NCBI GenBank assembly: GCA_015075455.1 | Contig: JABTUH010000016.1 | Coordinates: 192,001 to 215,686, forward strand | Direction: 5' to 3' | DNA: 23,686 nt | Source: Kofleriaceae bacterium | GTDB taxonomy: Bacteria; Myxococcota_A; Polyangia; Haliangiales; Haliangiaceae | Shown here: positions 8,755-23,686 of the stretch, piece by piece | How the letters are laid out: each line of letters starts with the position of its first letter | Position numbering within the stretch: the first letter of the stretch is position 1 | The notes under the pieces: generated by a model | The model's database searches: none | Seen by the model: only the letters and a program-made list of their open reading frames with translations | Told to the model about the DNA's origin: nothing | Translations under genes and position numbers: made by a program

Positions 8755-9138
8755 TCAGCCGGCCGTGGCCGCGATCAGCGCCAGCACCCGCGCCCGCAGC
8801 GCCTGCGGCGCCCACGGCTTGGCGATGACCTCGTCGACGACACCGGCGGCCTGGGCCGCGACCAGGGTCGGCTCGTCGTCGAAGCCGGTCACGACCACGA
8901 CCCGCAGCCGGGGCCAGCGCGCGCGCGCGGCCCGGGCCAGCTCGACCCCGGTCGGCCGCCCCAGGGCCAGGTCGCTGACCAGGGCGTCGGCCGGCCAGCG
9001 CTCGAGCACCGCCAGGGCCTCGGTGGCGTCGGCGGCGGCCACCACCTCGGCGGCGCGGGCGAAGGTCCGCACCATCAGGTCGCGGTTGTACAGCTCGTCG
9101 TCGACGACCAGGATGCGCGGCGGCGGACCGTCAGCCAC
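8755..9138 (-). CDS. Single-domain response regulator (CheY-like receiver)
   Basis: 'RILVVDDE' acidic pocket, '[12 protein letters not shown]' phospho-acceptor Asp, 'VVVVTG' Thr, 'AKPW' Lys. No output domain. GTG start overlaps the histidine-kinase stop by 8 nt. Confidence 0.8.
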
Positions 9139-21100: not shown

Positions 21101-23686
21101 ACTCGAGGCGGCGCTCGTCGTCGCGGGTCAGGCCGGCCCGCTTCTCGTAGACCCCGATGAGCCCGCTCCAGTCGCTCTTCTGCGAGAAGATCGACTCCAG
21201 GAACTTCACGCTGGTGTCGTTCTCGGGATCGATCTCGACGACCTTGACGTAGGACTGGGCCGCGGCGTCGAGCTCCCCCAGGTACTGGAGCTGGACCTGG
21301 CCGCGGCGGGCGTAGAGGTCGCCCAGGCGGTAGGCCCGCGACGCGCCGCTCTCCACCAGGTCGATCGCGCTCTGGTAGAGCTTCATCGCCGACGCCCAGC
21401 GCTCGTGCTTGTAGCAGAGCTTCTCGAGCGAGGTGAAGACCTCGCGGTTGGCGGGGTCGGCGAGGAACGACGCGGTGAAGGCGGCGATCGCGCCGTCGGG
21501 GTCGCCGCGGTTCTGCTTGACCTGGGCGATGCGCCCGTAGAGCTGGGCCCGCTCCAGCTTGTCGATCGTCGAGTCGGCGCGGGCCTCCAGCACCCGCATC
21601 AGATCCTTGTCGCGGCCGAGCCGCTCGTACAGCCGCTCGAGGGCCTCGAGCGCAGGCACGTACTGGGGGCGGCGCTCGAGGATCGACTCGTAGGCGAGCG
21701 CGGCGTCGGCGGGCTTGGCCAGCTTCTCCTCGCGGAGCTGGCCGAGCCGGGTCAGGATCGCGAGCTGGGCGTCGACGTTGCCCGCCGGCGCCGCCGCCAG
21801 CTCGCGCTCGAGCGCGCCGGCCAGGTCGGCCCAGCGCTCGGTGCGCTCGAGCAGCCGGGTCAGGTCGCGGTGGCTGTCGGTGCTGGCGCTGCCCTGGGCC
21901 GCGAGCTGGTGGAAGCGGATCGCGGTCTCGACGTCGCCGAGCTTGTCCTCGGCCATGCGCGCCAGCGACGCCGCCAGCCGCGGCCGCTCGGCGGCCGGGG
22001 TCAGCTCGATCTCGGCCTGCCGGATCTCGGCCAGCTCGGTCCACTCGCCCAGGCGCTCGAGGGCCTCGGCCAGGACCCGCAGGTTGGCCAGGGTCCGCGG
22101 CGCGCGCCGGTAGGCGATCGCCAGCTCGCGCCAGCGATCGTGGCCGCGGGCGACGCGGTCGACCCCGGCCAGGGCGGCGGCGTCGGCGGCGTCGATCGAG
22201 AGCGCGTCGTCGTAGGCGGCGAGCGCCCGCTCGGGGTCGCGCCCGTCCTCGTACAGCTTGCCGGCCTCGAGCTGGATGGCGAGGCGCCGCGACGGCTCGA
22301 CGCCGCGGGTCAGCTCCTGCTCGAGCAGCGCCAGCAGGCGATCGTTGCGGCGGGCCCGGCGGTGGAGCTGCTGCAGGGCGCGCAGCGGCTCGACGGCGCG
22401 ATCGTCGGCGCGCGCGGCGCGCTCGTAGGCGGCCAGGGCCGCGGCGTCGTCGTTGCGCCGGGTCTCCTCGAGCTGGCCGATCTCCAGGTACATCTGGGCC
22501 TGGCGGCGGACGTCCTTGACCAGCTCGGCGACGCGGGCCCGTAGCTCGATCGCCTTGTCCCATTGCCGGCCGTGCTCGCACAGCCGCGCCAGCTCGTAGG
22601 TGACGTCGGGGTCGTCGGGCCGCAGGGTCTGGGCCTGCTCGAGCACGGCGCGGGCGCGCCGGGTGTCGCTGATGTGCTCGGCCAGGATCTTGCCGTGCTC
22701 GCGCAGGAGCACCAGCTTGAGCTCCTCGGAGGTGCACAGCGCGGTGAGATCGGACAGCGTGCTCGACAGCTCGCGCCAGCGCTCGGCCTTGCGGTAGATC
22801 GCGGCCAGCGCGCCCTTGGCCGCGGGATCCTGCGGCGCCTGGCGCGAGGCCTGGAGAAGGAGCTCCTCCGCCTCCAGCGGCCGGGCGCGCGCGAGCTCGA
22901 GGGCGCCGGCGGCGAACAGGAGCGCGGTGGCGGCGCGGCGGTCGCGGGCCGACTGCGCCGCCGCCCGGTAGATCTCGCCGAGCTGGGCGCGGTCGCGCTG
23001 GCGACGGGCGAGGCGCGCGAGGTGGTCGAGCTCGCTCTGGCGCGCCGGACCGGGAGCGCGCTCCGACGACGCGACCTTGAGCAGCTCGAGGGCGCGGGCG
23101 ACGTCGCCCAGCCGGGCCTCGATGACCAGCGCCGCCCGCCGGTTGCCGGCCCGGGCGCCGTCCTTGGCCTGGGCCAGGAGGTGGCCGACCAGGGCCTCGG
23201 GCTCGCCGGCGCGCAGGCGCTCGAGCGTGAGCAGGCCGCTGGCCGTCCGGGCACCGGACGTCGCGAGCTGGGCCAGCTCGCCGGCCATGGCCAGCCCGTG
23301 GGCGTCGGCGATCTCGAGGGCGCGCCAGGCGTGGGCCGCGGACAGGCCGCCGGCGGCCTGCGACTCGGCGAGGCCACGGCGCGCGGTCACGGCGTCGCCC
23401 CAGCGGCTGGCGCGGTGGCCGACCCGGGCCATGGCCAGCCGCGCCAGCACCGGGCCGTAGCCCTCGTCGCCGGCGGCCGAGGCGTAGCCGGAGACCGCGG
23501 CGCCCAGGACGCCGGCGGCGAGCCGGGCGTCGGCGAGGGCGTGGCGGGTGGCGGCCTCCTCGCGGCGGGCCCCGGCGTCGGCCTCGAGCAGCTCGAGGCG
23601 GCGCTCGTGCAGCGCGGCCACGGCCGCGCCGTCGGCGCCCCCGGGCAGGCGCTGGGCGGCGTCGAGGGCGAGGTCGATCGCGCGCA
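18198..23686 (-). CDS. Giant TPR-repeat protein (>1829 aa), N-terminus beyond window edge
   Basis: Frame open from window end to TGA at 18198-18200. Dozens of TPR-like helical pairs ('[28 protein letters not shown]', '[26 protein letters not shown]', '[26 protein letters not shown]', etc.). Acidic/aromatic C-terminal region. Confidence 0.75.
   Translation of the reverse strand, partial: [1828 protein letters not shown]

Follow-up and report, generated by a model that had tools for sequence, protein, structure and literature searches.

A conserved signalling cluster built around an undescribed protein module occupies much of a 23,686-nucleotide (nt) stretch of the genome of a Kofleriaceae bacterium (GenBank assembly GCA_015075455.1, contig JABTUH010000016.1, positions 192,001 to 215,686), which is referred to here as the window. 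The module joins a STAS domain to a four-cysteine (C4) zinc ribbon (STAS-ZnR) and occurs twice, as STASa and STASb. Each copy is found with a Cys-rich PAS protein: STASa with a PAS histidine kinase (HK), which is followed by a stand-alone receiver (RR), and STASb with a kinase-less PAS/coiled-coil protein (PASb). The remaining genes encode a membrane PP2C phosphatase, a putative PhnD-like periplasmic binding protein (SBP) and two TPR proteins, TPRa and the giant TPRb. We consider the cluster to be a partner-switch variant built on the STAS-C4 zinc ribbon module with a probability of about 0.5, while every single step of the mechanism merits less confidence, and its probable role is to couple serine phosphorylation to two-component signalling instead of sigma-factor control. 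What is new is the STAS and C4 zinc-ribbon module itself, the way it is paired with a Cys-rich class of PAS domains, and the connections of the module with Hanks kinases, PP2C, a two-component system and a giant TPR protein. A first-pass annotation of the same DNA had read the cluster as an uncharacterised partner-switching-like system containing a duplicated trio of PAS, STAS-ZnR and TPR genes; that interpretation is partly supported.

STASa and STASb have the SpoIIAA/RsbV fold, with a conserved serine at the SpoIIAA phosphorylation position. The AlphaFold2 model of STASa, based on a 45-sequence alignment, is confident (pLDDT 82, pTM 0.77), and ~90 of its residues can be aligned structurally with known proteins, among which RsbV and SpoIIAA are closest. 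In the model, helix 62-73 begins at S62, and residues ~108-165 form a beta-ribbon with the four Cys and a terminal helix, which substitute for the last STAS helix. When the STASa alignment is compared by hhalign with Bacillus subtilis SpoIIAA, whose query sequence was verified against 1auz_A, N61-S62-C63-G64 is placed on D57-S58-S59-G60 and S87-P88-A89 falls on the SPA motif. S62 of STASa and S54 of STASb correspond to SpoIIAA S58 at the N-terminus of helix alpha2. A search of PDB sequences with the STAS-ZnR profile gave only chance matches to zinc-finger and thioredoxin proteins, so that kinship with STAS is seen by fold and hhalign only. In STASb, the module (residues 1-~158) continues into a Ser/Pro/Thr/Gly-rich low-complexity linker of ~125 amino acids (aa; residues ~160-285) and a C-terminal tail-anchor transmembrane helix (residues 286-314), which is predicted, like all topology given here, from Kyte-Doolittle scans. 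A C-terminal hydrophobic tail occurs in 93 of 96 full-length STASb orthologs.

STAS-ZnR is a large unnamed family. At 90% clustering, 628 relatives of STASa and 1,177 of STASb were obtained, and a HMMER scan of 1.84 billion representatives yielded 3,667 clusters (50% identity) at E<=1e-3, with 2,212 at E<=1e-10. Conservation was assessed in 188 module copies taken from the best 150 representatives (<=50% identity), in which the four ribbon Cys, G31, G64, W68, S108 and P112 (STASa numbering) are nearly invariant; the C4 zinc ribbon that had been proposed from the window alone is thus upheld family-wide. The position of Ser62 holds Ser in 147 of 182 modules (81%) and otherwise Pro (15), Glu (8), Asp (4) or Ala (2), and this Ser is invariant within both the STASa and STASb orthogroups. 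C86 is present in 151 copies and C63 in only 44. Fusions were surveyed in 67 longer family members, which include a Hanks-type Pkinase domain in 14, often behind two tandem STAS-ZnR modules, PilZ in 11 (six of these with a receiver too), PDZ in six and FIST in two; no fusion to GHKL, sigma-related or HK domains was found among them. Pfam STAS models were matched at E<0.001 by 11 of the 67. A STAS-ZnR-TPR fusion is represented by one neighbour in locus L064. Database names of family members are hypothetical or generic ("anti-anti-sigma regulatory factor", "RPC12/RpoP", "MlaB component"), no Pfam or NCBIfam model captures the module, and a literature search on STAS with zinc ribbons and on partner switching in myxobacteria found no description of it.

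The most constant genetic partner of STAS-ZnR is a Cys-rich PAS module. Both pairs in the window are paralogous far beyond chance, judging from pairwise sequence comparison: STASa is 39% identical to STASb over 149 aa (E=9e-39), and the PAS/coiled-coil part of HK shares 30% identity over 172 aa with PASb (E=4e-23), including the Cys motif and an "RT.EL" linker helix. The claim of two paralogous pairs therefore stands. That of a co-duplicated trio holds for the PAS and STAS-ZnR genes and fails for the TPR genes, as a TPRa/TPRb paralogy was rejected (best E=0.2; there is no detectable kinship beyond being TPR proteins). The duplicated unit is taken to be the Cys-PAS and STAS-ZnR pair because TPRa and TPRb are unrelated and reside in different compartments. 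On sequence features, HK and the adjacent receiver qualify as a two-component pair, with a HisKA domain (36.1 bits, cutoff 26.9) containing the predicted H-box His181 in AHELNNP, a HATPase_c domain (81.6 bits) and a predicted phospho-acceptor Asp56 in the receiver, which follows HK in many, but not all, orthologous loci. Membership of HK in T2SS_HK (NCBIfam) was rejected, with 227.8 bits against a cutoff of 450 and a match to the kinase core only.

The Cys motif is C56-x8-C-x3-C-x2-C72 in HK and C58-x8-C67-x3-C71-x4-C76 in PASb. C-x8-C-x3-C occurs in all 64 HK orthologs, distant ones included, and all four Cys (C-x8-C-x3-C-x4-C) in 59 of 60 PASb orthologs. Both window PAS modules are four-Cys modules, as had been noted, although across the family the fourth Cys (x2) is found in only 39 of 64 HK orthologs. 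Some HK orthologs without it carry an extra Cys nearby (CC or FC). The possibility that STAS donates the missing ligand was rejected, since loss of the fourth HK Cys does not correlate with STASa C63 or C86, and NSCG and CSP are kept either way. The AlphaFold2 model of PASb (pLDDT 89) shows an N-cap helix, a PAS core and, at the C-terminus, a helix of 57 residues (128-184), and the Cys are predicted to sit in a helical segment between core strands 2 and 3, which is the cofactor-pocket region. In a Foldseek comparison with the PDB, the structures closest to PASb are PAS/LOV domains of a generic kind that have helices on their flanks, and no match among the best 50 is described as a metal- or Fe-S-binding PAS. 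The PAS domain of NreB binds Fe-S clusters through Cys in the equivalent region, in four-Cys [4Fe-4S] and three-Cys [2Fe-2S] forms (PMC13478379). Similarly, the proteins studied here include a cytoplasmic PAS-HK with three to four conserved Cys in a helical cofactor-pocket region, and three- and four-Cys families coexist. The spacing differs, with C-x8-C-x3-C(-x2/4-C) here compared to C-x2-C-x11-C(-x2-C) in NreB (PMC13478379), and no relationship between NreB and these PAS modules was found beyond the PAS fold. The motif most likely coordinates a metal or an Fe-S centre, or else acts as a thiol switch; because its spacing is not that of NreB, this role is offered as a hypothesis and not as a family assignment.

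Conservation of the gene neighbourhood carries much of the argument. When GTDB species were scanned with one genome each, 79 loci were obtained (L004 is the window's own contig, from isolate PRO4), and these were read by tblastn and open-reading-frame-level blastp with the nine window proteins over ~20 kb around each locus. Their hosts are almost all Kofleriaceae, Haliangiales, Polyangia or "Myxococcales" metagenome-assembled genomes (MAGs). The full order, TPRb> STASb> PASb< PP2C> TPRa> SBP> STASa> HK> RR> (arrowheads give orientation), is kept in dozens of species, with STASa identities from 100% to ~48%, and recurs on independent metagenome contigs. A compact variant, TPRb> STASb> PASb< STASa> HK> (RR>), is without the PP2C-TPRa-SBP block, and a minimal variant, TPRb> STASb> PASb< STASa>, in L045, L046, L048 and L050 (at about 1,500-10,500 in each) is also without HK and RR. 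Elsewhere branch A occurs alone (PP2C> TPRa> SBP> STASa> HK> RR>), and the branch-B genes TPRb, STASb and PASb are missing from the retrieved stretch. Of 67 STASa genes, 60 are directly followed by HK and 64 have a Cys-PAS gene next to them; of 58 STASb genes, 49 come directly after TPRb and 47 have PASb no more than 6 kb away. Both PP2C and STASa are found in 48 loci. Even divergent loci (40-50% identity) keep the STAS-ZnR and PAS-HK pair. This distribution suggests that TPRb-STASb-PASb-STASa is the core, to which HK-RR and PP2C-TPRa-SBP are add-ons. The co-occurrence of PAS and STAS-ZnR genes expected by the first-pass annotation is therefore borne out over 79 species-level loci; the TPR proteins, which it had suggested as possible scaffolds or targets, are as a group less consistent companions than the Cys-PAS/coiled-coil protein (HK or PASb). 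Genes beyond the cluster vary, with an RND operon past RR in the window and DUF4159, GATase1_like and YkuD genes in L001-L003.

Several loci add kinases to this picture. Giants of ~1,700-1,800 aa are encoded immediately next to STAS-ZnR in L057:4351-9729, L066:3468-8603, L074:11154-16532 and L076:3432-8639. Those of L057, L066 and L074 combine Pkinase, AAA_16 (STAND), GAF and SpoIIE in one chain according to Pfam, so that kinase and phosphatase are joined in one protein; TPR repeats were detected in the L057 and L074 giants, and the L076 giant was matched to PP2C by BLAST only. In L066, L074 and L076 the giant adjoins a STAS-ZnR and PAS-HK pair; L057 has a STAS-ZnR paralog and no HK. In L064 and L065, (STAS-ZnR)-Pkinase fusions adjoin STAS-ZnR and HK genes. 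The linkage of PP2C and STAS noted in the window is thus repeated in several independent architectures. Loci L066, L067 and L032 have typical cluster content in MAGs labelled Gammaproteobacteria, Acidobacteriota or Pseudomonadota, and the L067 STASb module is 88% identical to that of the window; these labels are probably the result of mis-binning or loose naming rather than true taxonomic spread. A single lineage carries a glyoxalase-family gene and a 109-aa open reading frame without a Pfam match between STASb and PASb (L083:11637-12414, L084:1821-2600).

The PP2C-TPRa-SBP genes are present or absent as one block across loci. Transmembrane segments 11-40 and 233-258 of PP2C flank a ~190-aa periplasmic loop, which is followed by HAMP and SpoIIE/PP2C domains, and the motifs GGDWW, GDVTGHG, YTDG and KDDIT are each present. 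TPRa is predicted to be periplasmic because of an N-terminal signal or anchor (hydrophobic residues 37-64). Hydrophobic residues 1-26 of SBP likewise represent a signal or anchor. The window SBP has no Pfam match at E<=0.1 and a single-sequence PDB search was empty; PF12974 (Phosphonate-bd) is matched by 11 of 24 SBP orthologs (best 4.4e-09), and the ortholog profile has a weak PDB match to the exported binding protein 2pfy (E=0.036). The periplasmic loop of PP2C, TPRa and SBP together resemble a module for extracytoplasmic input. The same scans find no transmembrane segment or signal in HK, RR, STASa, PASb and TPRb and place these five proteins in the cytoplasm. Full-length TPRb orthologs of 2,047-2,316 aa are collinear with 45-59% identity; no transmembrane segment or signal peptide is detected in them either, and Pfam finds no further domain in the N- and C-terminal parts of TPRb.

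These features are consistent with the following mechanism. The membrane PP2C would dephosphorylate STAS-ZnR upon an extracytoplasmic cue, which would be sensed by an optional input block consisting of the PP2C periplasmic loop, exported TPRa and the putative PhnD-like SBP. The opposing kinase would be a Hanks-type Ser/Thr kinase encoded elsewhere and not an RsbW-type GHKL kinase; a Hanks type is most plausible because of the Pkinase fusions in the family and the neighbouring giants with Pkinase and PP2C. The phosphorylation state of STAS-ZnR may set its binding to the Cys-PAS/coiled-coil partner. In branch A, binding would tune HK and hence phosphorylation of the stand-alone receiver, whereas in branch B tail-anchored STASb and kinase-less PASb would form a membrane-proximal complex at the inner membrane with the giant TPRb as scaffold. 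The PAS Cys motif could add a redox or metal input, and the output would not be a sigma factor. A wider and more tentative proposal, which we consider possible but rather improbable in its entirety, is that STAS-ZnR with Cys-PAS/coiled-coil proteins is an unrecognised, widely used device of Polyangia: a redox- or Fe-S-gated partner switch that feeds Hanks/PP2C serine phosphorylation directly into His-Asp signalling and a membrane-tethered TPR scaffold, with the zinc ribbon as a second docking surface and a PAS sensor as target instead of an anti-sigma factor.

A number of observations weigh against the partner-switch interpretation. The pairwise hhalign match between STASa and SpoIIAA is weak (E=0.062). 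STASb scores below the curated STAS cut-offs (14.6 compared to 29.2 bits for PF13466; 18.1 compared to 53.45 bits for TIGR00377), and STASa has no STAS profile match in Pfam or NCBIfam, with assorted zinc-ribbon matches in both proteins. The domain searches suggested by the first-pass annotation gave a clear SpoIIE assignment (2.8e-42) and sub-threshold STAS scores; neither of the outcomes that it had named as damaging, an absence of co-occurrence elsewhere and a failure of the STAS assignment, was judged to be what was found. Of the 64 HK orthologs, 25 have no fourth PAS Cys, and the Cys spacing differs from that of every characterised Fe-S PAS. The cluster encodes no Ser kinase. The PP2C and HK branches are accessory because compact and minimal variants exist without PP2C and even without HK-RR. 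Finally, the STAS-PAS interaction is inferred from gene adjacency.

Some of the same facts would suit other explanations. STAS-ZnR could act without phosphorylation as a constitutive accessory subunit, comparable to MlaB in the case of MlaF, and stabilise or tune the Cys-PAS sensors while PP2C acts on other substrates. Minimal clusters that retain STASa, STASb, PASb and TPRb and have neither PP2C nor HK, the lack of a kinase in the cluster and the ~19% of module copies without Ser are compatible with this role, which we nevertheless regard as unlikely given that the Ser persists in 81% of diverged modules and without exception in both orthogroups, and that PP2C adjacency and Pkinase fusions recur independently. 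A canonical sigma-factor switch, in which the STAS-ZnR proteins are anti-sigma antagonists and an RsbW-type kinase/anti-sigma factor and sigma factor are encoded elsewhere, is more doubtful still. It would account for the STAS fold, the conserved phospho-Ser position and the SpoIIE-family PP2C in the operon, and only ~20 kb around each locus was covered. As the first-pass annotation had noted for the surroundings, however, no RsbW/SpoIIAB-type GHKL kinase (HATPase_c_2) was detected by Pfam or NCBIfam in the window or in L001-L003 and L083, the loci with Pfam annotation, and no sigma-70 family gene in the window or annotated orthologous loci, a distant gene being possible. The constant neighbours are instead PAS-HK, PASb and TPRb, family fusions involve Pkinase, PilZ, receiver (REC), FIST and PDZ domains and never GHKL or sigma-related ones, and STASb is membrane-tethered.

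A self-contained switch, in which the adjacent HK phosphorylates STASa Ser62 through its GHKL domain as an RsbW analogue, is slightly less probable again. Its appeal lies in the position of STASa directly upstream of HK in 60 of 67 cases and in a faint HATPase_c_2 match of the HK ATPase domain (E=0.036). Such a kinase is hard to reconcile with a canonical HisKA H-box and cognate receiver, with a paralogous PASb that has no kinase yet keeps its STAS-ZnR partner, with minimal clusters that have no HK, and with STAS-ZnR-HK fusions not being seen. Accidental juxtaposition of signalling genes with no joint function might be considered because myxobacterial genomes are rich in two-component, STAS, PP2C and TPR genes (PMC2887360), but it is effectively refuted by synteny: order and orientation are kept in dozens of species-level genomes over the whole range of STASa identities, while genes outside the cluster are not conserved.

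The partner-switch interpretation also has to be placed among known systems. Like RsbU-RsbV-RsbW and SpoIIE-SpoIIAA-SpoIIAB, the cluster has a SpoIIE-family PP2C beside a STAS protein with Ser at the start of helix alpha2. It would work like a partner switch, but neither the GHKL kinase/anti-sigma factor nor the sigma output, both defining features of the Rsb/SpoIIA systems, was detected nearby; the likely kinase is of Hanks type. In contrast to those systems, STAS-ZnR has a C4 zinc ribbon in place of the last STAS helix, the STASb paralog is tail-anchored in the membrane, and the genes conserved nearby encode Cys-PAS proteins, an HK-RR pair and a giant TPR protein. Partner switches with outputs other than sigma factors are represented by SiaABCD and HptB-HsbR-HsbA of Pseudomonas aeruginosa and SypE-SypA of Vibrio fischeri. 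The window PP2C shares with SiaA (NF038263) only its HAMP-PP2C architecture (98.1 bits compared to a cutoff of 700), and the cluster contains neither a SiaB- or SypE-type kinase nor a diguanylate cyclase. Conversely, the Sia, Hpt-Hsb and Syp systems are not known to have the zinc ribbon or the PAS pairing seen here. A further parallel is found where eukaryotic-like Ser/Thr kinases act on or are fused to STAS proteins: the Hanks kinase PknD phosphorylates the STAS protein Rv0516c in Mycobacterium tuberculosis (PMC1847690), and in Polyangia, where STAS proteins are expanded, a phosphatome study of Sorangium cellulosum listed 71 STAS proteins together with fusions of STAS to eukaryotic-like kinases (STAS-ELK), of unknown function (PMC2887360). 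Those reports contain no zinc-ribbon extension, Cys-PAS partner or conserved cluster, and the window cluster for its part has no such kinase.

Table 1. Coordinates of genes, domains and sites in the window (nt; residue numbers refer to the encoded protein).
Feature	Position	Strand	Evidence or detail
RR, stand-alone receiver without output domain	8755..9138	-	Pfam Response_reg E=1.7e-17, 64 bits
PAS-HK, PAS(Cys-rich)-coiled-coil-HisKA-HATPase	9131..10501	-	HATPase_c 6.9e-23, HisKA 7e-09, PAS_4 1.1e-07
HK H-box His181 (predicted)	9959-9961		AHELNNP
HK Cys motif	10286-10336		C56 to C72
STASa-ZnR, 165 aa	10551..11048	-	STAS fold + C4 zinc ribbon
STASa C4 zinc ribbon	10614-10706		C115, C118, C142, C145
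STASa STAS fold	10731-11012		residues ~13-106
STASa Ser62	10863-10865		
SBP, putative PhnD-like periplasmic binding protein, predicted exported	11053..11976	-	ortholog Pfam matches + hydrophobic N-terminus
TPRa, 883 aa	11996..14647	-	many Pfam TPR families
HAMP-PP2C membrane phosphatase	14664..16352	-	SpoIIE 2.8e-42, HAMP 7.1e-14
PP2C, SpoIIE/PP2C domain	14673-15257		
PP2C, HAMP domain	15447-15587		
PP2C, periplasmic loop	15657-16232		
Divergent intergenic region, PP2C operon / PASb	16353..16531	.	gene layout
PASb, 185 aa, kinase-less Cys-rich PAS + C-terminal coiled coil	16532..17089	+	Pfam PAS_9 1.6e-06
PASb Cys motif	16703-16759		C58 to C76
STASb-ZnR-linker-transmembrane, 315 aa	17112..18059	-	paralog of STASa, E=9e-39
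STASb tail anchor (predicted)	17118-17204		residues 286-314
STASb linker	17205-17582		residues ~160-285
STASb Ser54	17898-17900		
TPRb, giant TPR protein, 5' end beyond window, 1,828 aa present	18198..23686	-	many Pfam TPR families
TetR	2189-2929	-	
TolC-like OEP	2451-4316	+	
HlyD-type membrane-fusion protein	~4313-5653	+	
AcrB	5650-8712	+	

The G+C content of the window is ~72%, so long spurious open reading frames are common, and codon-position G+C was used to single out one consistent gene set, in which G+C at third codon positions (GC3) is 0.88-0.98 for the nine cluster genes. Together with Pfam, this places the nine genes where the first-pass annotation had them, apart from the start of PASb, which is revised to 16532 in preference to 16439 or 16523 because orthologs are ~185 aa long. 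PP2C, TPRa, SBP, STASa, PAS-HK and RR form an operon-like run of six minus-strand genes with gaps of 17, 19, 4 and 49 nt and then an 8-nt overlap between the HK stop and RR. PASb diverges from this run, and TPRb and STASb converge on PASb. The intergenic region between the PP2C operon and PASb presumably holds promoters. A promoter and terminator scan of 16200-18300 was uninformative, with a single weak consensus match for each, the former being sigma-70-like on the minus strand at 16380-16351, and an Rfam scan of the window gave zero matches. Window positions 2189-8712 contain an ordinary TetR-regulated RND efflux operon, which is unrelated to the signalling cluster and is not kept beside it in other genomes. 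The preceding ~1.5 kb (655-2188) has lower G+C (0.67 compared to ~0.75) and long open reading frames on either strand, with no Pfam match, no Rfam match and no convincing codon bias.

Polyangia such as Sorangium have the largest known sets of STAS proteins and eukaryotic-like kinases. The role of the STAS expansion in this class has been open since at least 2010 (PMC2887360). The cluster described here provides a compact and strongly conserved test case, in which a switch module has fixed genetic partners. If the proposed mechanism is correct, a partner switch that targets sensor PAS domains would join Hanks/PP2C serine phosphorylation to a His-Asp phosphorelay, and such Ser-to-His-Asp wiring through PAS is so far undescribed among partner-switching systems. 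A new class of Cys-rich PAS domains, possibly metal- or Fe-S-binding, would likewise join the signalling repertoire.

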